Below, piece by piece: positions 17,096 through 30,108 of a stretch of DNA of 64,000 bases. Every line of letters begins with the position of its first letter. Within the stretch, counting starts at the first letter, position 1. The position numbers and the translations under genes were made by a program. The DNA is taken from contig JBAXUE010000001.1 of the NCBI GenBank assembly GCA_037129835.1, forward strand, positions 174,858 to 238,857. The letters are read 5' to 3'. The stretch comes from a bacterium (GTDB lineage: Bacteria > Patescibacteriota > CPR2 > UBA1875 > CAIMLA01). The notes below the pieces were generated by a model. It worked only from the letters and a program-made list of their open reading frames with translations. It ran no database searches and was not told where the DNA came from.

Positions 17096-17740
17096 ATGAG
17101 GGCGTTATTTTCTGAACCAACCGTTAAATTCTGCGAAGAAGCAACCAGGGGTATAATCAAAAGACCTTATTATGCTTTGTCCAATTTTGCATTCTTCATT
17201 TCCGCAATCGCGATTTTCGTCAAGGGGAAGGGTTCAAAACTTTCAAAAATATTTGGCACCACCGCTTTATTAATCGGGTTCTTTTCTTTGGTGTACGATT
17301 CAACCTATATTTATCTTGCCCAGTTGTTTGATATCAGCGGGATGCTTTTATTTGTTAACGTTTTGTTATACCTAAATCTTAAGAATGTATTCAAAGCAAA
17401 AACCCTACTACTTACCCAGTTGCTTTTATTCGTTTTAAATATGATTTTAATTATCACTTTTCAAGGTCACTCGGGTAATATCATATTTGGATTATACATA
17501 ACTGCAGTAGTTGTTTCCGAGGTTTATTTAATAAATAGTAAGATACACACAAATTTATGGAAATGGTTGGTGCCCTTCGGAATTTTTATTATCAGTTTCC
17601 TGATATGGATTTTGGATGCAAGGAAAATATTTTGTTCACCTGTCGGGTTACTCAATGGTAGGGCAATATTTCATTATCTTAACGCGATTGTAATTTACCA
17701 GTTATACAAATTTTACGATTCACAAAAAGAGTTAACCTAA
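17096..17740 (+). CDS. Hypothetical polytopic membrane protein (about 6-7 TM)
   Basis: Hydrophobic periodicity only. No recognisable motif. Confidence 0.45.
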   Translation: MRALFSEPTVKFCEEATRGIIKRPYYALSNFAFFISAIAIFVKGKGSKLSKIFGTTALLIGFFSLVYDSTYIYLAQLFDISGMLLFVNVLLYLNLKNVFKAKTLLLTQLLLFVLNMILIITFQGHSGNIIFGLYITAVVVSEVYLINSKIHTNLWKWLVPFGIFIISFLIWILDARKIFCSPVGLLNGRAIFHYLNAIVIYQLYKFYDSQKELT

Positions 17741-17765
17741 ACAGATCGTTCCCAGTTCTTGCCAT

Positions 17766-17880
17766 TCCAACAATTCAAGAACCAACTGGTTCCAATGAGA
17801 TAACAGGCAGTCCACCATAAATTTAATGGCTAATTGGAGCCATTAAATTTATATACCCAATTTTCAGTTGGAACCTTTTT
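17766..17880 (+). repeat. Intergenic structured repeat, copy a (nested inverted repeats, GTCCACCATAAATTTAATGGCT core)
   Basis: Shares CAGTCCACCATAAATTTAATGGCTA-N-GAGCCATTA...TTTATATACC-AA-TTT-CAGTTGGAACC with 25425-25530. Outer inverted repeat GTTCCAA/TTGGAAC. Inner palindrome TTTAATGGCT/AGCCATTAAA. Confidence 0.6.
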
Positions 17881-17939
17881 AGGGATAAATACAAATAATA
17901 ATTTGCCCACTAATGCTATAATTATGAAAAGGAGAAACT

Positions 17940-18320
17940 ATGAATAAAAATATAATATATGTAATTATTGCTGTCGTGATTGGAGTATTGGCTGTCGGTG
18001 GCTATTTTGTTTTTCGAAATAATGGTAATAATACGAATAACAGCCAAAAGCAAACAACAACTCCAACAGCAGCTGAAACAACTAATTCCGTTAGGATTAA
18101 GGACTTCGCCTTTAGCCCGTCAGAAATAAAAGTAAAAAAAGGTACCACTGTAACTTGGAAAAATGAAGACTCGGCAACGCATAAGATAAAGTCAGACGCC
18201 TTTGAGTCAGGTGATCTTGCAACTGGTGATACATATCAATTTAAATTCGAGAGCACGGGGACATTTAGTTATATCTGTTCCATACACCCCTCGATGAAAG
18301 GAACGGTGACTGTAGAATGA
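17940..18320 (+). CDS. Membrane-anchored type-1 copper (cupredoxin; amicyanin/plastocyanin-like) protein
   Basis: N-terminal TM, Thr-rich linker, and a cupredoxin fold with ligands H (ATHKI) and C-x2-H-x2-M (CSIHPSM), an amicyanin-type spacing. Confidence 0.6.
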   Translation: MNKNIIYVIIAVVIGVLAVGGYFVFRNNGNNTNNSQKQTTTPTAAETTNSVRIKDFAFSPSEIKVKKGTTVTWKNEDSATHKIKSDAFESGDLATGDTYQFKFESTGTFSYICSIHPSMKGTVTVE

Positions 18321-18538
18321 TAAGAGAAATTGCTACATTCCAAATCCTCGGCCTCCCTGTAGTTGTCTATGGGGGATTGGTGACATTAACAGCATTTGCC
18401 TTTACGGCATATATAGGATATACAAACAAAAGCGGCAAGGGGAAAATACCATTCAAGTGGCACTCCAGAATGGTAATAGCCTCTTTTGTCCTTGCACTTA
18501 TTCATGCATTCTTTGCTATTTCATTGTTTGTTGGATAG
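18317..18538 (+). CDS. Small two-TM membrane protein
   Basis: Two hydrophobic helices. Stop/start overlap with the upstream gene. Confidence 0.35.
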   Translation: MIREIATFQILGLPVVVYGGLVTLTAFAFTAYIGYTNKSGKGKIPFKWHSRMVIASFVLALIHAFFAISLFVG

Positions 18539-18551
18539 GAAGTGAGGTTTA

Positions 18552-18834
18552 TGTGACTAGAGTAAAAATAAGTGATTCAAACATAAGGCATTGCCGATGC
18601 CCTGGGTGTCCGGTTCAGGTTGAAAGTGATTGTGCAAATAGGATATTAAAAGAAAAAAAGGTAGATGAGAGTGCCGGTAATATAGGTGAACTTTACTGTG
18701 CTACGGGAAAATCCACTTGTAATGATCTTAATAAAAATGAAACCTGTATTTGTTCATCATGTCTTGTCTGGGATGAAAATAATCTTGGTTCAATGTATTA
18801 CTGTCTCCGTGGTAGTGCGGAAGATAATGGATAG
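18552..18834 (+). CDS. Small cysteine-rich protein (about 94 aa, about 14 Cys), possible metal-binding domain (DUF2769-like?)
   Basis: GTG start after a GGAAGTGAGG RBS. Motifs CRCPGCP, CxNDLNKNETCICSSC and YYC. Family assignment is from memory only. Confidence 0.4.
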
Positions 18835-18845
18835 AGTTTGATCTG

Positions 18846-19796
18846 ATGAATATACCCGATATTATCGAATCTTTTGGTTTCCCGGTTACTTTAGCTTTTT
18901 CAGCAAAAGGTAGAGCATTTTTTAGCGAAAGAATAACTGGTAATATTTGGGAAATAAAGGGAGACAAGATGGATCTTGTTTACAAGTTCCCAATTGTAAA
19001 TATTTCAGGGCATCACGAGACTGGGCTCATAGGAATCGCGGTGGATCCTGATTTTGACATCAGCGGTTATATATATGCTTTCTATACCTATGGTCGAGAT
19101 GAATACTCGATGAAGAATAAAGTGGTTCGATTCTTAGTTGGAAGCGGGAAAGAGGAGACGATTTTAGATAATATTCCTGCTGGCCGAATCCATAATGGCG
19201 GCATCATCGCCTTTGCTCCGGACAAAACCCTATATATCGGCGTTGGTATCGGTAACGAGGTTATGGATAGGTCTCAAGATATCGACTATCTCGGAGGTAA
19301 AGTCTTACGAATAAATAATGATGGCTCGATACCTAAAGATAACCCGTATAAGGAATCTCCGGTTTACTCCTATGGTCATAGGAATATATTTGGCCTCGCG
19401 TTTCATCCTAAAAATGGCAAACTCTTTATAAGCGAGGATGGCCCAGAAAAAAATGACGAAATAAATATTATCCAACCCGATGGAAATTACGGCTGGCCGG
19501 AGGTTACGGGAAAAGTCGGGAGTCCAAAGTTTGTAGACCCCATCATTACCTATACTCCCACTATTACTCCTACCCAATGTTGTTTTGATGAAAAGTATTT
19601 TTACTTTGGGAGCTATAATGATGGGGCAGTACATCGATTAACACTTGGTGGAAAGGATTATAATAAGGTCGAAAAGGATGAGACTGTATATCGTGGGAAA
19701 TCATTCGGGGTAATCGGGGTTTTCCATAGCCCAGATCACCAGTTTTATGTTACAACACCGAATAGAATCTCAAATTTTTCTCCAGAGGTAAGCTGA
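18846..19796 (+). CDS. Soluble quinoprotein glucose/sorbosone dehydrogenase-like beta-propeller (GSDH family)
   Basis: HNGGIIAFAPDKTLYIGVG, GGKVLRINNDGSIPKDNPY, YSYGHRNIFGLAFHP and GNYGWP, as in PQQ-dependent sugar dehydrogenases. Confidence 0.7.
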   Translation: MNIPDIIESFGFPVTLAFSAKGRAFFSERITGNIWEIKGDKMDLVYKFPIVNISGHHETGLIGIAVDPDFDISGYIYAFYTYGRDEYSMKNKVVRFLVGSGKEETILDNIPAGRIHNGGIIAFAPDKTLYIGVGIGNEVMDRSQDIDYLGGKVLRINNDGSIPKDNPYKESPVYSYGHRNIFGLAFHPKNGKLFISEDGPEKNDEINIIQPDGNYGWPEVTGKVGSPKFVDPIITYTPTITPTQCCFDEKYFYFGSYNDGAVHRLTLGGKDYNKVEKDETVYRGKSFGVIGVFHSPDHQFYVTTPNRISNFSPEVS

Positions 19797-19836
19797 TAAC
19801 TATATCTTTGAGTTCTTCCAAGCCATCAGTTCTTTA

Positions 19837-19930
19837 ACCAATAAGTTCCAACTATTTTCGAAGTAGTCCACCATTTTGACCACATCGAAAATACTTGGAA
19901 CCAAGGGGAGACACGAAAGTGTCTCTTTTG
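19837..19930 (+). repeat. Intergenic structured repeat, copy b, ending in the terminator hairpin GGAGACAC-gaaa-GTGTCTC + TTTTG
   Basis: ACCAATAAGTTCCAACTATTTTCGAAGTAGTCCACCAT shared with copies c and d. Internal inverted repeat GTTCCAACTATTTTCGA / TCGAAAATACTTGGAAC. Terminator at 19907-19930. Confidence 0.6.
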
Positions 19931-19982
19931 TATTCTAAAAGGTGTTTTTATGGGTTATTATATACTCAGGTATAGGGGGAAC

Positions 19983-22823
19983 ATGAAAATAGCTAAATTT
20001 AAACTTGCTTACCTTGGCCTTTCGGTGCTTTTGCTTATCTCAGCAACTTTTGTTGGTTTCAAATTTCTTTATAATAATTCTGCAGGTCAGCTAGCCAAGG
20101 GCTCATTTTATATTAGCCAATTTATTGACTCGAACTGGAAGGAAATCTACGACGAGTCCTTTGGGGTCGAATATCAAACTAAAACTTTTACTATTGCACC
20201 ACGTGACGGCAAGGTTCAGATACAGATAAATCAAAAGAATATTCCTTATTCGGATGTTGAATTTGTCCATTTGAATGCTTGCGGGGTGAATATTACTCCT
20301 GAATACGCAAAGTATGCGGTTACCGGTGAGAGCGTCCTAGCGGATATATCGGCCGATGATAATAACGTAATCGTCGCCCACGAGAAGCCAGTTGAAATAC
20401 TTTGGAACATGCCAATTGGTTGTACAGGCACAGCCACCATGACGATGAAGGCGAACGAGTACAGCTCAGCTGAAGCAGGAGCAATTCGCTTTCCATACTC
20501 TGGTGCTCCTAATCAGACTTATCAATTTATAAACAACGGAACCATCACCATAGACGGTAACATCAAGGAAGTTGACGGCATCGCCACTCCAAACTATTCA
20601 CCTACTTGGCTATCTGGCACTGGCCATCCTGGAGGTAGTACATATATCTATATGCAAGATGATGCAAAATACGTCTATCTTTCATATGACATCACCGGTG
20701 ATAATACCAATGAGCACGGACCTGACTGGCTCAAGATCATGGCGCTAAATACTAAAGACGGTAAAGAAAAAGAATATAAGATAAATGATGATCCAGGCCA
20801 ATACGGTCAATGTGGTTTTGGTCTGACTGGTAAAGTTTCATACAAACACCAGACATGTGAGGCAAAGATACCAAAGGCAGATCTGGTTGGTAGTCATCTC
20901 TCATTCTACTCGCTGTATTATGGAACTTTTTCAGGACCTCAGTTTAATAATTATCCTAGCGTTATAACAAGCCCATCAAATACACTGCCGGTTGTGAAGG
21001 GAATGGTATCTGACAATAGCGAAACTCCGGGAAACATCGGGGCTGTAAAATTCCGTGTCAGAGATAGAAATTCTTACTCGACCAGAGAAGAAGACAGTGG
21101 GGCATATGATGGTGTTTGCACTGCAGATGATGGAGTATTCTCTGGGTCTGAAGAGAATTTCACCTGTACTGCCACCGAAGCACTCTCTTATGGCATTAAC
21201 TATGCCTTTGATCTGGAGCTAACTCTGGAGGGCAGTAGTGTCCCGAATGCATACGGAGAGGCCGATTTTACACTCTACGATAATGATTATTCAATCGTTC
21301 ATGATTATAGCGACACCCTGGGTAGTTATCCAATTGGTCAATTTGTAAAGAATGGCAACAAGCTATACGGTGCTACAACTAGTGGTGGTGAACATGGCTA
21401 TGGCAATATATATTCGATGAACATAGACGGTACAAACATGACCAGTATTCACTCCTTTGATGGACAAGGTGATGTAGCTGGCGGTTACACAGTCAGTAAT
21501 TCCTTGGTTTTATCGGGTTCATATCTGTATGGTATGGTCCAAGGTGGAGGCGATGTCGATCAGGGCGGTGTATTCAGACTGAATGTAAACGGAAGCGACT
21601 ATTCAATGATTCACTCATTCAGCGGGTCCACCGACGGATACACCCCCTATGGTTCACTGACTGTATTAGGGAGTCGTCTGTATGGTATGAATGTCAATGG
21701 GGGAATAAATAGTCGGGGAACTATTTTTGGACTGGATATGGACGGGACCAACTTCTCGGTTATTCATAGTTTTGCAGGTCCTGAAGGTGGTAATCCTTTT
21801 AGCACCTTGATTGAGTCGGGTGGCGTTCTGTATGGTATGACAAACTCCGGTGGACTTCAGGATAATTTTGGTGTAATCTTTTCTATCTTGCCATCCGGTG
21901 CCGACTATCATATTTTACATTCATTTTCTGCATCTGATGGCTTTCAGCCGAGTGGGTCATTAACGCTCATTGGGGAAACACTGTTTGGGGCGACTCAGAG
22001 TAGCGGAGCAGAAAGTGGCAATGGGATTATCTTTAAAATCCAGAAGTCTGGGGCCGACTATTCTATCATTCATAATTTTGGCGATGATTTAAACGATGGG
22101 GACCTACCAACATATTCGTCGCTTCAGCTTTGGGGTGACAAACTATATGGAGTCACTGACATCGGGGGAGATAATAACATGGGGACAATATTCTCTATAA
22201 ATACGGATGGTACTGGCTACTCGCTGTTACATGAATTCGCTGGAGGCCCCTATGATGGTCAAACGGGTAGATTCTCGGTGCTCATTTCTAATGGCGTGCT
22301 TTACGGTACGACTTTTTATGGTGGCACATCAAGTCAGGGTGCCATGTTCAAAATGACACTTCCTGGGGCTGTCAGTAACCCAGGCAGTAGCGGTCCAGTA
22401 TTCACGAATCTACCCAGCGCTACCACGGTTATCAATATTACAGATGGTCAGACCATCACTACAAATCCCTATACTTTAAAAGTGAAGCCAACAGATGCCG
22501 ATGGTATTCAAAAGGTTGAGTTTTATATCGATAATATCCTTATCTGTACTGATACTACCGCCGATGTTGATGGCGTATATTCATGTGATTGGGATACTAG
22601 TAAATATCACTCAGATGTTAAAGTCTTGGCTTATGATACGAATGGCAATGTATCCACTGCACTAACTCGTTCGGCTACTGTGAGGCTGGCCAGTACGACT
22701 ACAGGAACATTGCCAGAGACAGGTGGTAAGAATAATCTAGGAAACATCTTATGGCTCATCGGTTTACTCGGCGTAGCGTTCGTAGGTGCTCGTTCAACAC
22801 TAAAGGATAAGGGAGGGGAATAA
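19983..22823 (+). CDS. Large sortase-anchored surface protein: signal peptide, N-terminal domain, about 8 tandem ~40-aa beta-propeller-like repeats, Ig-like domain, LPETG sorting signal
   Basis: Repeats of the form G-x-LYG-x-T-x-GG-x4-G-x-[IV]F-x-[IL]-x3-G-x3-S-[IV]-[IL]HSF (GloVer-like). C-terminal LPETGG followed by a hydrophobic segment and a basic tail (ARSTLKDKGGE). ATG at 19983 preceded by an AGGGGGAAC RBS. Confidence 0.75.
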   Translation: MKIAKFKLAYLGLSVLLLISATFVGFKFLYNNSAGQLAKGSFYISQFIDSNWKEIYDESFGVEYQTKTFTIAPRDGKVQIQINQKNIPYSDVEFVHLNACGVNITPEYAKYAVTGESVLADISADDNNVIVAHEKPVEILWNMPIGCTGTATMTMKANEYSSAEAGAIRFPYSGAPNQTYQFINNGTITIDGNIKEVDGIATPNYSPTWLSGTGHPGGSTYIYMQDDAKYVYLSYDITGDNTNEHGPDWLKIMALNTKDGKEKEYKINDDPGQYGQCGFGLTGKVSYKHQTCEAKIPKADLVGSHLSFYSLYYGTFSGPQFNNYPSVITSPSNTLPVVKGMVSDNSETPGNIGAVKFRVRDRNSYSTREEDSGAYDGVCTADDGVFSGSEENFTCTATEALSYGINYAFDLELTLEGSSVPNAYGEADFTLYDNDYSIVHDYSDTLGSYPIGQFVKNGNKLYGATTSGGEHGYGNIYSMNIDGTNMTSIHSFDGQGDVAGGYTVSNSLVLSGSYLYGMVQGGGDVDQGGVFRLNVNGSDYSMIHSFSGSTDGYTPYGSLTVLGSRLYGMNVNGGINSRGTIFGLDMDGTNFSVIHSFAGPEGGNPFSTLIESGGVLYGMTNSGGLQDNFGVIFSILPSGADYHILHSFSASDGFQPSGSLTLIGETLFGATQSSGAESGNGIIFKIQKSGADYSIIHNFGDDLNDGDLPTYSSLQLWGDKLYGVTDIGGDNNMGTIFSINTDGTGYSLLHEFAGGPYDGQTGRFSVLISNGVLYGTTFYGGTSSQGAMFKMTLPGAVSNPGSSGPVFTNLPSATTVINITDGQTITTNPYTLKVKPTDADGIQKVEFYIDNILICTDTTADVDGVYSCDWDTSKYHSDVKVLAYDTNGNVSTALTRSATVRLASTTTGTLPETGGKNNLGNILWLIGLLGVAFVGARSTLKDKGGE

Positions 22824-22828
22824 ATACT

Positions 22829-24829
22829 ATGAATTTTAATTTAAAAAAGACATTCAGCAATATTTTAGTTTTTGTTTTTATGTTTAATTTTTTAATGCCA
22901 GTAGCCCAGGCTGCAGCGCCAGTACAAAGTGTTTTTTTATACGAGCCTGGGGTTAGTCCAACCAATATTCAAATAGACTTTTATCCAAACGAATGGAGCG
23001 ATGTAATAGATTATTGGACGGTTGAATACAAAAAAAGTACCGATACTACCTGGACATCTATGCTATCCGCAAATAACGGGGGCAGCAATTGGGCGCGCAT
23101 TACCGGCTTGTTGCCGGGAACTTCATATGATATTAGGGTTTATGCGACAAACAGTGATGGACAGGGTCCATATAGTGATATTACTACAGTTTCTACCCCG
23201 TCATATGGGCCTGCTGCAGTAGATTTTTTTGGCAGTGGAAGAAACGACTATGGTGAGGATTGGACCGAGTCTAATAGCGACAATACAAATACGTCTTTTA
23301 GTAATCCTAGCGGTGTCGCCATAGACAAGAATCATCATAGGTTATTTGTTGCTGATGGTGGTGGCGATGGTGATCGTAATCATAGAATTATGGTCTTTAA
23401 TCTGGATAGTAATAATGAACCCCTGGACCACATAGCAGATGCGGCAATTTACTCTGTGGATATAGATGGTGATGAGTCGCTTTTGAGAGCGCCAAGAAAT
23501 GTCTTGTACGATAATGACAGTGACACCTTATTTATAGCTGATAGTGATAACGGTAGGATTGTGGTTGTAGATGGCTCCGAGGATCTTATTGTCGAGGGTA
23601 CAGAAGACGACCCTTGGGCTATCCCAGTGGCACAGAACATCTTGGGAGCTGGCGATTTTGATTACCCTCTTGGTATGACCCTAGACAGTGTAAATGGCAG
23701 ATTGTTTGTTGCAGAGAAAGATAAAACAAAAGGTAGTGTTTACGGCAGTGTAAACGTATTTGACGTAAGACCTGCAGGAAGTACTGCAAAAACGATGTGT
23801 GGTGTAACTACAACGGGCATCGAAGATACGACTCCTTCATGCAGCTTGTGGGCAAGTGATGCACTTAGACCTAGAGATGTTGCCTTTGATAGCGTAGGTC
23901 AAGTTCTTTATGCTGCGTATGCAGACCAAAATAGGGTTTTGTCCTTTGATGCTAGAGCTGAGGAAAGTGAAAATAAAACAATGTGTGGAGTGACTACGAC
24001 TGGACTACCCACTAGCGATACAACTGCCATGACCCCATCTTGTGTTTTGGGTCAAACAAATATGGATGATACCGATGGCGATACCACTCAAAGTGGACTA
24101 GATGTTCCCAGAGGTTTGTGGTTTGATCAAGATAACGACCGCCTGTTTGTAGCTGATTTGGGTAATAACCGCGTTCTACAGTTTAATGGTCTGTCATCTA
24201 TGACTAATGGCATGGATGCGACTGCTGTTTTTGGACAAGGGGCCTTTACACAAGACAATAGTCAAACAACTCAATATGAGCTCGATAGTCCAAATGCAGT
24301 TACTATAGACCCTATCACCAAGCGTTTATATGTTAGCGATAACCAAAACAATCGTATAATGGTCTTTGCCTTAGAGGATCCACCAGAGCCACCAGCAACC
24401 CCACCAACTTTCGTCGATTTACCTGGTACAAGCTCTGCTATTAACGTCACCGAAGGCCAAACGATTACAACCAACCCATACACCATAAAGGTAAAACCAA
24501 CAGATACTGACGGTATCAAGAAAGTCGAGTTCTATATCGATAATATTCTTATTTGTACCGATACAACAGCAGATAGTGACGGTGTCTACTCCTGTGATTG
24601 GGATACCTCGAAATACCACTCTGATATCAAAGTGCTGGCCTATGACACAAATGACAATGTATCAACAGCCCTAACTCGCTCTGCTACTGTGAGACTAGCT
24701 AGTACTACTACAGGAAAGCTTCCAGAAACTGGCGGTAATAATAATCTAGGAAACATCTTATGGCTCATCGGTTTACTCGGCGTAGCTTACGCAAGCAGAC
24801 GCCTGATGCTCAAAAAAATAAATATTTAA
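22829..24829 (+). CDS. Sortase-anchored surface protein: signal peptide, fibronectin-III-like domain, about 6 NHL-type beta-propeller repeats, Ig-like domain, LPETG sorting signal
   Basis: Signal peptide MNFNLKKTFSNILVFVFMFNFLMPVAQA. NHL-like repeats (SNPSGVAIDKNHHRLFVADGG...NHRIMVF, NNRVLQF, NNRIMVF). C-terminal 130 aa are about 90% identical to the C-terminus of the upstream gene, including LPETGG. Confidence 0.75.
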   Translation: MNFNLKKTFSNILVFVFMFNFLMPVAQAAAPVQSVFLYEPGVSPTNIQIDFYPNEWSDVIDYWTVEYKKSTDTTWTSMLSANNGGSNWARITGLLPGTSYDIRVYATNSDGQGPYSDITTVSTPSYGPAAVDFFGSGRNDYGEDWTESNSDNTNTSFSNPSGVAIDKNHHRLFVADGGGDGDRNHRIMVFNLDSNNEPLDHIADAAIYSVDIDGDESLLRAPRNVLYDNDSDTLFIADSDNGRIVVVDGSEDLIVEGTEDDPWAIPVAQNILGAGDFDYPLGMTLDSVNGRLFVAEKDKTKGSVYGSVNVFDVRPAGSTAKTMCGVTTTGIEDTTPSCSLWASDALRPRDVAFDSVGQVLYAAYADQNRVLSFDARAEESENKTMCGVTTTGLPTSDTTAMTPSCVLGQTNMDDTDGDTTQSGLDVPRGLWFDQDNDRLFVADLGNNRVLQFNGLSSMTNGMDATAVFGQGAFTQDNSQTTQYELDSPNAVTIDPITKRLYVSDNQNNRIMVFALEDPPEPPATPPTFVDLPGTSSAINVTEGQTITTNPYTIKVKPTDTDGIKKVEFYIDNILICTDTTADSDGVYSCDWDTSKYHSDIKVLAYDTNDNVSTALTRSATVRLASTTTGKLPETGGNNNLGNILWLIGLLGVAYASRRLMLKKINI

Positions 24830-25380
24830 GACTTATCCTTGCTGGGGTTGGGGTTGCTTCGCTTCTTGCTTTTGGTATTTTCTTTCCATGGAAACCATTT
24901 GCCGATAACTTGTTCAACAAGAATGGACTAAACATCACCATGTCTAAAGAAGAAGAGGGATCCTTTCAAGATTTTGGTATAGAGATACCGAAGCTTGATG
25001 TAAAAGCGCCGGTTATGGCCAACGTAAATGGTGATAATAAGTCAGAATACAACAAGTCACTGACGAAGGGACTCGCTCACTACAAGGGGACCTCTCTACC
25101 TGGCGAAAAGAGCAATATCTTTGTTTTTGGTCACTCAAGTAGCGACACAGACGGTGGACGTTACGCTAAAATATTTAGAAAACTAGACGATCTAAAAAGT
25201 GGCGATAAGATAACTGTGTATTATAAGAGCAAGAAACATGAGTACACAGTAACCGATAAGAAAGTTGTCGAGGCCGACGACCTTTCACCTCTCAACCTGA
25301 CTGATGGTGAACAGCTAACTTTGATGACCTGCTGGCCGATAGGAACCGTAGAAAAGAGATTGATAGTTATCGCGAAATAG
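24760..25380 (+). CDS. Sortase (transpeptidase), N-terminal TM anchor
   Basis: Catalytic His in IFVFGHSS, TLxTC motif LTLMTCWP, and a downstream Arg. The ATG at 24760 has an AGGAAA RBS and overlaps the last 70 nt of the upstream LPETG gene in another frame. Confidence 0.8.
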   Translation: MAHRFTRRSLRKQTPDAQKNKYLRLILAGVGVASLLAFGIFFPWKPFADNLFNKNGLNITMSKEEEGSFQDFGIEIPKLDVKAPVMANVNGDNKSEYNKSLTKGLAHYKGTSLPGEKSNIFVFGHSSSDTDGGRYAKIFRKLDDLKSGDKITVYYKSKKHEYTVTDKKVVEADDLSPLNLTDGEQLTLMTCWPIGTVEKRLIVIAK

Positions 25381-25424
25381 CATCTATTCTAGACTGATTC
25401 AGCACTTTCCAGGCGAGTAATTCC

Positions 25425-25530
25425 TTTACCAACAAGTTCCAACTATTTTCGACGCAGTCCACCATAAATTTAATGGCTATTTAGAGCCATTATTTTTATA
25501 TACCAAATTTACAGTTGGAACCTTTGAGCG
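25425..25530 (+). repeat. Intergenic structured repeat, copy c
   Basis: Near-identical to copy a over CAGTCCACCATAAATTTAATGGCTA and TATATACCAAATTTACAGTTGGAACCTTT. Confidence 0.6.
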
Positions 25531-26891
25531 TGAGATGGTATTATTTCGGTATGGAGCAACTAGGTCAAAATCAATCAATCGAAACTGATGACGTTAAACC
25601 GCCAGAAGTCTTTGAGGCTAAAGCAGATGCTGATCCTGCCTTGGCGGCATATTCTTCTCAACCTGAGAATAATCCACTCTCGCAAGCTTTTATGGAAAAA
25701 TATGGGGTTGAATATTCCGACCCTCAAGCCTTAGCTGAAAATCCAGACAAACCTTCACCGGAAATTTCTATGGTGATCCCGGTTCACAATGAGGGTGAAA
25801 GTATTGTTGGGTTGCTCGAGTCCCTAGCGTCACAGGTAAGCGATAAAAGCGCCGAAATTGTATTAGTAATAAATAATGACACAGTCGGGACTAGAGACAT
25901 TATTGATAAGGCAATCGCGGAAGGTAAAATTGACGGTTCTAAATTGCGCCTAGTCGATTGTAGCTACGAAACAAAAGAAGATGGTGATGCTAAGATGGGC
26001 GGGGTTGGGTTAGCCAGGAAAATTGGTATGGACTATGCCGTAAGCTCTGGCTCTGAAACGATAGTCTCCTTAGACGCAGACTGGAAGGTCGAAGACGGCT
26101 TTATTGACCAGGTTGACCAAACAATGTCGCCAGATATCGATGGATTCACCTTTCAAACTGAAGGAATTGCTAACGATGATAGTTCACGTGAATATATGAG
26201 GGTGATGGGTCAGGTCCAGCGCTACAGAGAAGCACTAGGTATTTCTGCAATAAAAAAAGAGGTTGATTTAGAATCGCCGCTAGACAAGAATACAGGTGCA
26301 GTCCATGTGGTCAGAGCTTCTAGCTATGCCAAGGCTGGTGGCATGGTCCCTGTCGTCACAGGTGAGGACGGTAGGTTTGGTGCAAGGGTTTCTGAGAGTG
26401 GCGCTCGACTAAAGAAATCAGAAATTACAGTTGGCGTTGAAATTAGGGAGAGTGACACGCCGGGTGGTCAAGGGGAAAGCCTAAAGAAATTCAACGAAGG
26501 CCTTGTTACAAACCCAGATAAGCCGGGCGAATATATCACGATTGATGAGGCTCAAGAAAAGATGGATAACAGCAAAGAATTTCAGGCAGAACAGAAAAGA
26601 CAAGAAAAAATTGATGAGATCTCAAAAGAACTTATCCAAGAACTTACTAGTTTTTATAACAATAACAAAGAAAAATTACAGACATTAGAAATTGAAGACA
26701 TTGATTCAATTAAAGAAGAGGCAAATACCAGTCCGCTAATAAGCAAGTATCTACTATCTTCAGAGAACGATTTTAGCCAACTGATTGGGATACTTAAGGA
26801 CAGCACTACAGTAGATCAATTCATTTCGGGATTAAGAGATAAGCTGGGCGACGCTGTTAAGGGAAGGGTAGAGGAGTCCGTAGCTTCGTAA
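25515..26891 (+). CDS. Family-2 glycosyltransferase with long C-terminal charged/coiled-coil tail
   Basis: ISMVIPVHNEGESI and a DxD (LDAD) arrangement. C-terminal 130 aa are Lys/Glu-rich. Confidence 0.6.
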   Translation: MEPLSVRWYYFGMEQLGQNQSIETDDVKPPEVFEAKADADPALAAYSSQPENNPLSQAFMEKYGVEYSDPQALAENPDKPSPEISMVIPVHNEGESIVGLLESLASQVSDKSAEIVLVINNDTVGTRDIIDKAIAEGKIDGSKLRLVDCSYETKEDGDAKMGGVGLARKIGMDYAVSSGSETIVSLDADWKVEDGFIDQVDQTMSPDIDGFTFQTEGIANDDSSREYMRVMGQVQRYREALGISAIKKEVDLESPLDKNTGAVHVVRASSYAKAGGMVPVVTGEDGRFGARVSESGARLKKSEITVGVEIRESDTPGGQGESLKKFNEGLVTNPDKPGEYITIDEAQEKMDNSKEFQAEQKRQEKIDEISKELIQELTSFYNNNKEKLQTLEIEDIDSIKEEANTSPLISKYLLSSENDFSQLIGILKDSTTVDQFISGLRDKLGDAVKGRVEESVAS

Positions 26892-26916
26892 ATCTTCTTC
26901 CATTCTTTTAACTCTC

Positions 26917-27015
26917 CCACCAATAAGTTCCAACTATTTTCGACGCAGTCCACCATATATTTAATTGCCGATTCGGGTCATTATTTTTTTGTACTTATTT
27001 TTCGCTGGAATGAAA
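26917..27015 (+). repeat. Intergenic structured repeat, copy d (3' half degenerate)
   Basis: ACCAATAAGTTCCAACTATTTTCGACGCAGTCCACCATATATTTAAT is shared with copies b and c. The right arm has diverged. Confidence 0.5.
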
Positions 27016-27083
27016 GAGGGCGTTTGATTTCTGCTTTTCGATATTATTGAGTTATAATTAAACAAATAATTATTAGGGGGGAT

Positions 27084-27788
27084 ATGTTTTTATATAAAAT
27101 AAACAATCTGACAAAAACTTACGGCGAAAAAGAGGCCAAAGTAGTTGCGCTAAATGACATCAATCTTGAGATTCCTTCAGGGAAATTTATAGTTATTCTG
27201 GGAGCGAGTGGCTCAGGTAAAAGTACGCTGCTAAATATTATGGGAGGTATGGACAAGCCGACTTCGGGCGAAGTCTTTTTTAATGATCAAAGTATTTCAA
27301 AATATAATAAAGGGGAACTAACAAAATATCGGAAAAGTAATATTGGTTTTGTTTTTCAATCATATAATCTACTGCCAGATCTAACAGCTCTTGAGAATGT
27401 AGAATTTTCAACAGAAATAGCCAAACTACCGAGGATAAAAGCAGAAGAAGCCTTGGGTCTAGTAGGGCTAGATAAGAGACAAAGACATTATCCAAGTGAA
27501 ATGTCGGGTGGCGAGCAACAGCGTGTATCTATAGCAAGGACGCTGGCCAAGAATCCGAAGGTTTTACTTTGCGATGAACCAACAGGAGCCCTTGACTATA
27601 AAACGGGCATCAAGGTCCTTGAACTACTCCACAACGTACACGAAGACGGACTTACCTCGGTGATAGTGATTACTCACAACCAAGATATTGCCAAGATTGC
27701 TGATATGGTAATAAAGATGCGCAGCGGTGAGATAATTGATATAAATGAAAACAAAAAGCCGCTCAAGCCTTCGGAAGTGAAGTGGTAA
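27084..27788 (+). CDS. ABC transporter ATP-binding protein (MacB/LolD/FtsE-like)
   Basis: Walker A GASGSGKST, signature LSGGEQQRV, Walker B LLLCDEPTGALD. Confidence 0.9.
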   Translation: MFLYKINNLTKTYGEKEAKVVALNDINLEIPSGKFIVILGASGSGKSTLLNIMGGMDKPTSGEVFFNDQSISKYNKGELTKYRKSNIGFVFQSYNLLPDLTALENVEFSTEIAKLPRIKAEEALGLVGLDKRQRHYPSEMSGGEQQRVSIARTLAKNPKVLLCDEPTGALDYKTGIKVLELLHNVHEDGLTSVIVITHNQDIAKIADMVIKMRSGEIIDINENKKPLKPSEVKW

Positions 27789-27789
27789 G

Positions 27790-30108
27790 GTGAAAACCGG
27801 CAACAAAATAATCGTTCGACGTAATTTTGAACAACTTGGCGCCTTTATTTCAACACTTTTAATAATTGCGGTCGCCGTTGGGTTTTTTGTTATTATTAAA
27901 TCAGTGGTCGCTTCTTACCAAAATAGAGGAGAAGAGTATTTTCAGACAAATGCCTTGGCCGAATATTCTTTTTTTGGTGAAGGCTTTAATGAATCGGATG
28001 TTTCGGAAATAAATAATGTCGCAGGGGTCAAAGATGTTTTTGCCCGCAATGTTTTTGATGTCAAAAATGAAGACAAAACCTTTCGTGTTATATCGGCTCC
28101 ACAGAGTCCTCAAATAAACATTCCATATATTTATGAAGGCGAGATGCCGAAAGGGTCAGCTCAGTGCTTACTCGCCAAAAAATACGCTGATGCCAACGGT
28201 TTACATCTTGGTGATTATCTCGATATCACTATAGCTGGTCAGGTATACAAACTAAAGATTACTGGCCTAATGGCTTCCCCAGAATATGTTTATTTGTCAA
28301 AAAATGTTGCAGTCCCATTTGCTAACCCTAAAGAATTTGGGATTGTTATGGTTGATAATGATTTTTTTCAAATTATCGGTAATCCATACTATAACGAAAT
28401 ACTTTTGTCTTTTAACGCCGACGCAAATCAGTCAAAAACTGTCGAAAGTGTAAAAAAAGCGATTGATAGCAGTAAAATTGTTTCTGAAACTGAGAAAAAG
28501 GATCAGTTGAGCTATAGTTTTTTTAAGGCAGATTTGAAGCAAATCAACCTTTTTGCCTATATCTTTCCTCTTGTATTTTTATTTATTACGGGAGTAATTA
28601 TACTGGTAATCCAAAAAAGAAATGTTATTCACGATCGACGACAAATCGGTGTTATGAAGGCGATGGGGCTGTATGATCGAGAAATTATTTGGATTTATGT
28701 CAAAAGTGCCTTACTACTATCGACTTTGGGAATATTTATAGGAATCATTCTGTCGATACTTATCGGTCAGTTTATCGTAAGTATGTTTGGTTCTATGTAT
28801 GAATTGCCGAATTATATTTATCAAAATGATTTTATTACATGGATTGTTCCTGCGTTAGCAGTTTTGGTCATTAGTACGATAGCCAGTTTTTGGGCCGTAA
28901 TATCGGTCACCAAGATTGTTCCAGCTGAAGCTATGCATGCAGAAACTCCGAAACAAGGTAAGGATATCTGGCTTCAAAGATGGAGATTTTGGGACCATTT
29001 GTCATTTAATAGTCGATATGCCATCAAGTCGGCAGTCAGAAATCGCGGAAGATTTTGGGCGGTAGTTATCGGGATGATTGCCACAATTTCATTGTTATCA
29101 TTTTCCTTTGGTTTTAAGGATTCGCTCCAAGAAACAGTAACTAATGGTTTTGAGAATACTGCCAAATATGACCTCTCAGTTTATCTAAGTGAAGTCCCTT
29201 TTGAGACGGATCAATCGTTTCTAGGAGATAAAGGTGTAATTGATTATCAAAAAACAAATCTTATAAAGACTACCATCAAGAACGGATCCAAAAGTAAAGA
29301 TGTTACGCTTGAGATTTCTAATGATATTTTCTCGATGCATAATATCAAGAATCTAGAGGGAAACAGACCCGATATCGCTAATGGCATAGCTTTGCCAAGA
29401 TACATCGCGAAATTAATGGACGTAAAGAAGGGCGATATAGTAAGTATTTCAACTTCTGATAAGCAGATTGATACAGAGGTAACTGTTTCTGACATTACCG
29501 ATCAAACCGCCAATTTTTATGCCCTAGCTACTTATGATTTTGCTCAAGAATATCTAAAATTAGATAATAAAAGTTATAATACAATCTTTATAAAAAGCAA
29601 CAATCCGAGTGCGTTGCGAGATAAAATTACCGAGAGCAATACCTCAATGTGGGTTACTTTGAGATTAGAAGACGCAAAGAGCTTGAAGAATATGATGATG
29701 ATATTTGATCCATTTATATATTCACTGATTTTCTTTGCGATGGTTTTGGGGGTGGCAGTCTTGTTTGCTATTATGACTATCAATATTGCCTCGAGAGAAT
29801 ATGAATTTGTACTCCTGAGGGTAATGGGTTATTCGCCACTACAAATAATTGTCGCGTATATCAAAGAGCTTCTGATACAGATAATTATTGCACTACCTCT
29901 TGGTATTGTACTTGGGAATCTAATGCTCATGGGTATAGGCGACGCGTTTTCTACCGATGCCTTTGAAATGATTGGTCGGATTTATCCCACAAGCTATCTA
30001 TACTCGTTTTTGCTTTTAATTTCTGTGATGGTAATTGTAACTTTCTTTGCCTTCAGGAAAATCAACAAGCTTGATCTTGTAGCTGGCCTTAAAGAGCGAG
30101 AAGAGTAG
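27790..30108 (+). CDS. ABC transporter permease, double FtsX-domain (MacB-type) with large extracytoplasmic domains
   Basis: Two blocks of four TM helices with FtsX-like C-terminal hairpins. Stop/start overlap with the ATPase. Confidence 0.8.
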   Translation: MKTGNKIIVRRNFEQLGAFISTLLIIAVAVGFFVIIKSVVASYQNRGEEYFQTNALAEYSFFGEGFNESDVSEINNVAGVKDVFARNVFDVKNEDKTFRVISAPQSPQINIPYIYEGEMPKGSAQCLLAKKYADANGLHLGDYLDITIAGQVYKLKITGLMASPEYVYLSKNVAVPFANPKEFGIVMVDNDFFQIIGNPYYNEILLSFNADANQSKTVESVKKAIDSSKIVSETEKKDQLSYSFFKADLKQINLFAYIFPLVFLFITGVIILVIQKRNVIHDRRQIGVMKAMGLYDREIIWIYVKSALLLSTLGIFIGIILSILIGQFIVSMFGSMYELPNYIYQNDFITWIVPALAVLVISTIASFWAVISVTKIVPAEAMHAETPKQGKDIWLQRWRFWDHLSFNSRYAIKSAVRNRGRFWAVVIGMIATISLLSFSFGFKDSLQETVTNGFENTAKYDLSVYLSEVPFETDQSFLGDKGVIDYQKTNLIKTTIKNGSKSKDVTLEISNDIFSMHNIKNLEGNRPDIANGIALPRYIAKLMDVKKGDIVSISTSDKQIDTEVTVSDITDQTANFYALATYDFAQEYLKLDNKSYNTIFIKSNNPSALRDKITESNTSMWVTLRLEDAKSLKNMMMIFDPFIYSLIFFAMVLGVAVLFAIMTINIASREYEFVLLRVMGYSPLQIIVAYIKELLIQIIIALPLGIVLGNLMLMGIGDAFSTDAFEMIGRIYPTSYLYSFLLLISVMVIVTFFAFRKINKLDLVAGLKEREE

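Follow-up and report, generated by a model that had tools for sequence, protein, structure and literature searches.

The DNA analyzed here, a window of 64,000 nucleotides (nt) from contig JBAXUE010000001.1, stems from a Berkelbacteria-like member of the candidate phyla radiation (CPR, Patescibacteria) and contains a three-gene operon comprising two genes for large surface proteins, in the following termed gene 1 and gene 2, and a sortase gene whose start is embedded in that part of gene 2 which encodes the C-terminal sorting signal. Very probably, this operon displays two large β-propeller proteins covalently on the cell wall, with the N-terminal tail of the sortase dual-coded in the gene 2 sorting signal and with anchor and enzyme together forming a recombining unit. 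The three open reading frames (ORFs) are located at 19983–22823 (gene 1), 22829–24829 (gene 2) and 24760–25380 (sortase), in complete agreement with the coordinates given in an initial annotation of the window. All coordinates are window positions, and features lie on the plus strand unless stated otherwise.

The translation-initiation region of the sortase (24740–24786) resides within gene 2 and comprises an AGGA element (24748–24751), the ATG start codon (24760–24762) and the first nine sortase codons. Located 8 nt before the ATG, the AGGA is supplied by a conserved Gly codon (GGA) of gene 2, and the ATG is formed from the likewise conserved Leu-Trp codons TTA TGG, the A being the third base of the Leu codon and TG opening the Trp codon. 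This same pair constitutes the "LW" of the hydrophobic segment in the gene 2 sorting signal. From the ATG to the end of the gene 2 stop codon, the overlap spans 70 nt (24760–24829), i.e., 23 codons plus the stop, and reads WLIGLLGVAYASRRLMLKKINI followed by the stop in the gene 2 frame and MAHRFTRRSLRKQTPDAQKNKYL, the basic cytoplasmic N-tail, in the sortase frame (+2). The sortase frame contains no ATG, GTG or TTG between 24760 and Met61, and as Met61 sits past the only transmembrane (TM) helix, no start other than ATG 24760 gives a membrane-anchored, exported sortase. The earlier assignment of the sortase start to position 24760, with a ribosome-binding site of its own and an overlap with the last 23 codons of gene 2, is thus corroborated.

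The same arrangement of an ATG within a Leu-Trp pair is present in the related loci L004, L005, L085/L086, L087 and L088, the sortases of which are 63–72% identical to that of the window. Across five lineages, third-position identity in the substrate frame amounts to 0.84 within the overlap vs. 0.42 upstream of it, and in the sortase frame to 0.77 within the overlap vs. 0.40 downstream. The silent sites of each frame are therefore frozen exactly where they serve as coding sites of the other frame, which is the hallmark of true dual coding. A codon-aware test on eight more distant CPR pairs, for which the most conservative sortase starts were used, yielded 0.72 vs. 0.43, with all eight pairs agreeing in direction (Fisher p = 1e-4). 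Judged from these sequence comparisons, both frames of the overlap are under purifying selection.

With regard to distribution, we surveyed 80 GTDB species genomes that contain a homologous sortase, all of them CPR, the relatives of the window sortase belonging to Berkelbacteria and other CPR. In most of these genomes, the sortase gene is immediately preceded by a large co-directional gene whose product terminates with a TM helix and a basic tail, and the sortase start is usually located inside that gene. When starts were chosen conservatively, i.e., nearest to the TM helix while still leaving a basic N-tail, 32 of 56 loci exhibited an overlap of at least 10 nt and 28 of at least 20 nt. Under identical ORF rules for both sets, overlaps of at least 20 nt were found for 23 of 39 pairs with the sortase as downstream gene, compared to 9 of 155 other co-directional pairs from the same loci (odds ratio 23, Fisher p = 1e-12). 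As these other pairs rarely overlap to such an extent, general compaction of CPR genomes is not the explanation. An overlap of at least 20 nt occurred in none of ten annotated non-CPR sortase loci, which were taken from Streptococcus, Enterococcus (two), Listeria, Clostridium (two), Latilactobacillus, Bacillus, Priestia and Streptomyces and represent classes A, C and D as well as one unclassed enzyme. Here, the sortase starts 4–151 nt past the upstream gene, with a gap of 56–141 nt where that gene encodes a pilin or LPXTG protein. Taken together, the two controls reject the long overlap as a general property of either sortases or CPR genomes, and the pattern across loci identifies the embedded sortase start as a family-wide CPR trait specific to this gene pair.

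The overlap may be real and nevertheless functionless, i.e., a frozen accident or ratchet in which compact CPR genomes recruited a start codon further upstream and then kept it only because separating the genes would now damage one of them. We regard this as a serious but rather doubtful possibility. It is in line with the variation in overlap length and start position among lineages (20 to 80 nt), with short gaps or overlaps of 1–4 nt in about a quarter of the loci, and with the fact that Lys/Arg-rich tails read Lys/Asn/Gln-rich in the other frames, such that two basic tails overlap cheaply; furthermore, many long overlaps have been explained neutrally by simulation (PMC3887535). On the other hand, the scarcity of such overlaps among the other gene pairs of the same compact loci speaks against an accident, persistence over many CPR classes argues for more than drift, and the overlap is not irreversible, because a single mutation has given rise to an ATGA junction in L001/L088 (see below).

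Both putative substrates end in ASTTTG[TK]LPETGG[KN]NNLGNILWLIGLLGVA plus a charged tail, with a hydrophobic stretch of 14–16 residues after LPETGG. In gene 1, the signal (22710–22820) consists of LPETG (22710–22724), the hydrophobic segment NILWLIGLLGVAFV (22743–22784) and a tail (22785–22820), and in gene 2 (24719–24826) of LPETG (24719–24733), the hydrophobic segment NILWLIGLLGVAYA (24752–24793) and the tail SRRLMLKKINI (24794–24826), which is clearly basic (+4). The LPXTG_anchor model TIGR01167 scored 15.6 bits on the gene 2 tail (cut-off 15.9, E = 0.019), and the signal is thus borderline by hidden Markov model (HMM) while its anatomy, as read from the sequence, is complete. No further ORF with such a signal exists within the 64 kb. 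The initial description of an immunoglobulin (Ig)-like domain plus LPETGG, a hydrophobic stretch and a basic tail in both proteins holds for gene 2, and for gene 1 in everything except the charge of its tail, which is only weakly basic.

Gene 1 encodes a protein of 946 amino acids (aa). Its start is ATG 19983, preceded at a distance of 4 nt by the Shine-Dalgarno (SD) sequence GGGGG, rather than the upstream ATG 19950. The N-terminus is a signal or anchor made up of MKIAKFK and 19 hydrophobic residues (19983–20078). GloVer-like propeller repeats had been noted earlier and were verified with TIGR03803, which matched in seven stretches with 201 bits (cut-off 44; 204 bits for the ortholog from L087); the seven repeats are located at 21342–22367, with L[YF]G cores at residues 461, 515, 566, 616, 667, 721 and 773. 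The Ig-like domain belongs to family Big_7 (residues 820–874, 22440–22604, 34.5 bits vs. a cut-off of 24.1), and the constant C-terminal module starts here. For some 420 residues between signal and GloVer repeats (about 33–453; window 19983–21341), no match to Pfam or NCBIfam was obtained; this region is 88% conserved in the L087 ortholog. The 666-aa gene 2 protein, the SD sequence of which (GGGAGGGG) is located inside the end of gene 1, starts with a signal peptide bearing a canonical AQA/A site (PVAQA/AAP, 22829–22912). The FN3 and NHL domains predicted for it at the outset were recovered as Pfam matches above the gathering cut-offs, namely an fn3 domain (22952–23191, 39.2 bits vs. 25) and an NHL-type propeller (about 23276–24373, 58.7 bits vs. 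20), and these are followed by Big_7 (24449–24616, 37.8 bits vs. 24.1).

The sortase comprises 206 aa with a TM helix at residues 24–44 (24829–24891) and a catalytic domain at residues 74–206 (24979–25377). It scored 98 bits with PF04203 (cut-off 26.6) and 82.8 bits with TIGR01076 (cut-off 39.35). His125 (25132–25134), Cys191 in TLMTC (25330–25332) and Arg200 (25357–25359) are unchanged across 20 homologs, the Cys within TLMTCWP, and align with GH, TLVTC and R of the class C sortase 8t28, such that the catalytic triad originally proposed for the TLxTC protein withstood comparison with solved sortases. An AlphaFold2 model with a predicted local distance difference test score of 85 overall and above 90 over the catalytic domain was compared with solved sortases using Foldseek (E = 4e-12, root mean square deviation (rmsd) 1.8–2.0 Å over about 137 residues) and predicts an eight-stranded β-barrel sortase fold. 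The protein has a single hydrophobic helix with a basic N-tail before it, and this helix is predicted to act as a membrane anchor that puts the catalytic domain outside the cell.

An identical 206-aa protein (P0001) is present in NCBI as "MAG: class D sortase [bacterium]" (MAG, metagenome-assembled genome). None of the NCBIfam class models reached its cut-off with the window sortase. The best was the class C model NF033745 (85.3 bits vs. 160), followed by the class D models NF058671 (80.2 vs. 140) and NF033746 (77.6 vs. 165), class E (52 vs. 160) and class F (37 vs. 166), and no class A model was among the NCBIfam matches. Class D sortases act on motifs of the LPxTA or LPNTA type, and the adjacent proteins carry LPETGG instead. 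The fold is nearest to class C, the hallmarks of which are absent, and assignment to any class was therefore abandoned. The sortase contains neither a DP[WFY] lid motif nor a C-terminal TM helix, ending directly after the last strand, and its substrates lack the YPK pilin motif. With one N-terminal TM helix and in the absence of these features, we read it as an anchoring and not as a pilus sortase.

That the enzyme could be a class C-type pilus polymerase, with both proteins as pilus subunits rather than wall-anchored monomers, appears very improbable. Class C sortases do provide the best PDB matches in sequence as well as in fold, the structures nearest to the predicted core being SrtC-1 from A. 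oris (2xwg) and SrtC1 from GBS (3tbe) with about 30% identity and an rmsd of about 1.9 Å, and the top NCBIfam model is of class C. The score nevertheless stays far under the class C cut-off, lid motif and C-terminal helix are missing, and the substrates are propeller proteins of 666–946 aa without a pilin motif; class C pilus sortases differ in all these respects, and in the class C loci sampled a gap of 56–141 nt follows the pilin gene.

Gene finders such as Prodigal limit overlaps on the same strand to 60 nt. Close homologs of the sortase (P0004, P0005 and P0006, 146–159 aa) have been deposited without N-terminus and TM helix, and the DNA for P0006, which corresponds to L005, contains a full ORF of 210 aa that overlaps by 70 nt. 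The short versions have probably arisen because overlaps longer than 59 nt are routinely thrown out as misannotation (PMC3887535), which suggests that CPR sortases are systematically truncated by gene callers owing to the long overlap. The reverse reading, that the 70-nt overlap is itself an annotation artefact and the real start is Met61 (ITMSKEE...) or a non-canonical codon past the gene 2 stop, could appeal to the frequent misannotation of overlaps of this length and to the shortened gene calls. We consider it very improbable and largely refuted, as the truncated calls are likely artefacts themselves, a start past the sole TM helix would leave the enzyme without membrane anchor and export signal, the interval between 24760 and Met61 offers no other start, the N-terminal peptide MAHRFTRRS..QKNKYL is conserved, and silent sites of the substrate are constrained exactly over the overlap.

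As to the translation of the sortase, tight translational coupling of enzyme and substrate had been proposed and is not borne out, since termination-reinitiation is confined to an effective range of about −8 to +6 nt (PMC10666635) and the sortase start precedes the end of the gene 2 stop codon by 70 nt. Neither an RNA structure hiding the embedded start nor a frameshift stimulator was detected (Z-scores −1.2 to +1.4, no conserved fold). Independent initiation at the internal AGGA-ATG appears more likely than termination-reinitiation. Ribosomes crossing the internal site during translation of gene 2 would tend to keep sortase output under substrate output, and limited initiation would suit an enzyme required in a smaller amount than its substrate. 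Because both helices come from the same few dozen nucleotides, the C-terminal helix of the substrate and the N-terminal helix of the sortase could, speculatively, insert at one membrane site. Synthesis of substrate and sortase as one polypeptide, via −1 frameshifting or transcriptional slippage at an A7 run (CUC AAA AAA A) near the gene 2 end, with the enzyme tethered by a two-helix hairpin, would agree with the sortase frame being −1 relative to gene 2, with the conservation of the A7 run in five lineages, with a consistent topology (out-TM-in, then in-TM-out) and with four loci (L007, L015, L018 and L052) that have LPxTG proteins without a TM helix of their own directly upstream of the sortase, but is highly unlikely given that a canonical X_XXY_YYZ heptamer and a stimulatory structure downstream are lacking, the A-run merely represents Lys codons in either frame, silent-site constraint spans all 70 nt from the ATG and not just the part past the A-run, and a conserved ATG with AGGA stands at the 5′ end of the overlap. 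In the four loci just mentioned, the partner proteins stop a few residues past LPETG or LPKTG (e.g., ILPETGGNWYLGWVNSLF followed by the stop), without hydrophobic segment or basic tail, and the sortase begins 13–56 nt downstream; either the signal is truncated in these cases or the sortase helix somehow substitutes for it.

Further insight into the history of the operon came from comparison with relatives, for which metagenomes were probed with the 119-aa C-terminal module. The unit of Big_7, LPETGG and embedded sortase occurs on four passengers, i.e., GloVer, fn3-NHL, GLUG and ELWxxDGT. The ELWxxDGT-repeat passenger is found in L085/L086 (512 bits) and the GLUG-repeat passenger in L088 and also in L005, while the L087 passenger is the 943-aa GloVer ortholog of window gene 1. 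The initial annotation had suggested a search for variable N-terminal domains on a constant C-terminal module, and this comparison turned out positive. The gene 1 ortholog of L087 has the sortase gene as its immediate downstream neighbour, with a live embedded start (MVHRFTRRS..). Window and L087 are 88% identical in the passenger, 79% in the module and 72% in the sortase, which indicates that passengers and anchor-plus-enzyme units have separate histories. The relatives L089–L091 contain the same Big_7 domain with a VPNTG or SPNTG signal and have neither an embedded ATG nor a sortase alongside.

Within the window, gene 1 retains a 47-mer (22731–22777) that is identical in all 47 bases to 24740–24786 and comprises the relic AGGA, an ATG (22751) and the first nine sortase codons. 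This ATG opens a 19-codon ORF, MAHRFTRRSVRRCSFNTKG, which ends at 22810 just before the gene 2 SD sequence; roughly the first dozen sortase codons are preserved before the sequence becomes the ribosome-binding site of gene 2. We read the relic start, on the basis of this resemblance, as a trace of a former gene 1-sortase junction, though it may itself have a function. The C-terminal modules of the two genes are only about 76–80% identical in DNA, their codons differing synonymously in 52 cases and non-synonymously in 9. A recent conversion event covering the entire module was rejected on these grounds, as only the 47-mer is identical. Between lineages, the 47-mer stretch is the best conserved, being 79–94% identical (3–10 differences) vs. 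74–81% for in-register flanking module DNA. Given these 3–10 differences and the fact that gene 1 no longer precedes a sortase gene, dual-coding constraint alone does not account for the complete lack of differences within one genome. Gene conversion over a short tract would explain the identity most simply, at least in part; no RNA structure accounting for it was found.

From these data, the following scheme can be derived. N-terminal signals would export both surface proteins via Sec, and the LPETGG, hydrophobic and charged elements behind the Big_7 Ig-like stalk would then hold them in the membrane. The type-II membrane sortase would cut between Thr and Gly by means of His125, Cys191 and Arg200 and transfer the proteins to peptidoglycan, as expected from the protein families concerned. 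The overlap would weld the anchor signal to the 5′ end of the sortase gene as one inseparable, heritable unit, and Big_7, signal and sortase would have been recombined as such onto various passenger domains in related genomes. Gene 1 of the window would represent a former sortase-adjacent substrate that still bears the relic start.

Several observations weigh against this explanation. The internal SD sequence (AGGA) is modest and many distant family members do not have one. The gene 1 tail, GARSTLKDKGGE, carries a net charge of only about +1. With all NCBIfam class cut-offs missed, the specificity of the sortase is deduced solely from the adjacent LPETGG. The exact 47/47 identity needs gene conversion beyond the model. 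All members of the family stem from MAGs or metagenome contigs, and the overlap may be a frozen accident rather than have a selected function. Finally, the architecture is not always intact. In L001 (2860–2945; corresponding to L002, L003 and L088), from a related population represented in three assemblies, TGA takes the place of the SD-supplying Gly codon GGA, and the substrate ends at LPQTGGNNNQ without a hydrophobic segment. A new ATG 12 nt upstream creates an ATGA stop/start junction and a sortase beginning with MKYFMAHRF.., and the old signal is still intact in frame past the stop, reading NILWLIGLLGAAFVSAQLILKKINI up to the next stop. We read the TGA as a nonsense change that also makes the ATGA junction; a nonsense variant, a site of readthrough and the source of a released protein form are all conceivable. 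A genetic code with UGA as Gly was rejected for the window, which uses the standard code with TGA terminating 7 of 37 long ORFs, and is unlikely for L001, where a Gly-rich ORF of 669 aa has no other TGA.

For 20 of the 56 CPR loci, the majority of them carrying a Microgenomates or Parcubacteria label, the partner overlapping the sortase lacks an LPxTG-like motif. These loci (within L028–L082, e.g., L043, L044, L051, L065, L077 and L079) contain [VI]LGE(x)T 19–34 residues before a TM helix and a basic tail, and this element, which is not covered by any NCBIfam sorting-signal model, may on account of its position be a non-canonical sorting signal. Further partners bear NP[LIV][ST]x near the helix (four cases) or TPP[TK]P (two cases). 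One MAG (CAIMLA01; L005 and L027) encodes at least two distinct sortase-substrate pairs, each with an embedded start: an LPETG/GLUG protein paired with a sortase sharing 71% identity with that of the window (L005), and a 291-aa LPKTG protein with a sortase 36% identical (L027). This is consistent with one private sortase per substrate.

In a more far-reaching proposal, which we put forward tentatively and regard as possible rather than probable, CPR would possess a dual-coded anchor-plus-enzyme cassette that cannot be split, such that recombination upstream, in or before Big_7, would give any secreted passenger a wall anchor and a private sortase in one step and drive fast turnover of surface proteins in episymbionts. 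The 47-mer would then represent a hotspot of recombination or gene conversion, and many lineages would rely on a signal other than LPXTG ([VI]LGE about 20–35 residues before the TM helix) outside the curated models.

The operon is bounded at its 5′ side by a terminator-like hairpin (GGGGAGACAC-GAAA-GUGUCUCUUUU, 19905–19932), recognized by sequence and minimum free energy folding, which ends the preceding gene, and at its 3′ side by an intrinsic-terminator-like hairpin with a U-run (UAAUGGCU-AUUUAG-AGCCAUUA, 25471–25497), which ends the operon and lies within one copy of an intergenic repeat. Four copies of this repeat, with the core AAGTTCCAACTATTTTCGAnGnAGTCCACCAT, are present (17757–17878, 19813–19932, 25404–25525 and 26895–27016), each immediately 3′ of a plus-strand gene. 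Three of them form an outer stem GUUCCAAC...GUUGGAAC enclosing an inner hairpin (z = −4.9, −4.5 and −2.8), and the fourth is devoid of its 3′ arm. No Rfam family matched the repeat. On the minus strand, each copy contains a short ORF (MVD[CY]xxxxWNxLVxELxxW..), the copies showing some synonymous changes; interpretation of the repeat as a gene for a small peptide on this strand (MVDCxENSWNLLV...) was set aside in view of the conserved long-range stem and inner hairpin on the RNA, and the repeat looks, by sequence and fold, like a structured element, either similar to repetitive extragenic palindromes or miniature inverted-repeat transposable elements or a terminator. The copies do bracket the locus, as had been stated, and are not part of the system because related sortase loci (L004, L005 and L085–L088) lack them. 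The same applies to the genes further downstream: a family 2 glycosyltransferase (GT2, 25515–26891) and an ABC ATPase with an FtsX-type permease (27084–30108) were confirmed by HMM, in agreement with the GT2 and MacB-type exporter reported initially, and their inclusion in an island was rejected since they are not found near the sortase in the same relatives. A role of the locus in adhesion or host attachment, also suggested at the time, is a plausible inference. Upstream, the region 17096–19796 encodes a ceramidase-like membrane protein, a cupredoxin/plastocyanin-like protein, a small membrane protein, a Cys-rich DUF2769 protein and a propeller of the glucose/sorbosone dehydrogenase type (GSDH, 194 bits), apparently a small redox/copper cluster that is unusual in a CPR genome.

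Class A sortases handle numerous unlinked substrates, beside which they are usually not encoded. SrtA from S. aureus, the class A paradigm, resembles the window system in its LPXTG, hydrophobic and basic signal, its N-terminally anchored His-Cys-Arg transpeptidase and the inferred attachment to peptidoglycan, whereas the window sortase is dedicated, adjacent and overlaps its substrate. In B. subtilis, yhcR-yhcS features a motif of the LPDTS/LPXTA type and not LPETG. There, in a bicistronic operon, the gene for a large secreted protein bearing a sorting signal at its C-terminus immediately precedes that of a dedicated, N-terminally anchored sortase, an order also present in the window, but the enzyme is of class D, the cut-offs for which the window sortase fails, and no long overlap is mentioned (PMC3222306). 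In the class D locus of Priestia, the sortase is located 67 nt past the LPXTG gene instead of overlapping it. Coupled gene pairs with ATGA or TGATG junctions are likewise co-directional genes of one pathway with overlapping coding sequences (PMC10666635; PMC6728339); their overlaps measure 1–8 nt, whereas the sortase overlap measures 70 nt in the window and 20–80 nt in relatives and is genuinely dual-coding. The L001/L088 variant has reached such a classical junction via its GGA-to-TGA change. In CPR, the sortase family fam000526 has been reported from more than half of the genomes and as near-ubiquitous in Microgenomates (Meheust et al., 2019, PMC6744442). It represents the same kind of protein from the same lineage, described in terms of presence or absence only; embedded start, dual coding with a sorting signal and a passenger-swapping module are not described there, nor were they found by full-text literature searching.

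Systems of LPXTG proteins and sortases are thus already known and annotated, and the conserved dual-coding overlap and the recombining module are what is apparently undescribed. As LPXTG plus sortase is textbook knowledge, the gain is architectural and evolutionary and involves no new biochemical principle. Sortase-anchored proteins are prime candidates for host attachment of the ultrasmall CPR episymbionts, in which sortases are unusually common. Predictions of CPR surface proteomes are systematically affected, because the long overlap makes gene calling often miss or truncate the sortases, several database homologs lacking their membrane anchor. The overlap also constitutes a clean, conserved natural case of long same-strand dual coding between an enzyme and the signal it recognizes, at a length usually dismissed as error. 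Last but not least, the architecture offers a concrete mechanism for swapping passengers on a constant anchor-plus-enzyme unit, which bears on surface variation and host range.

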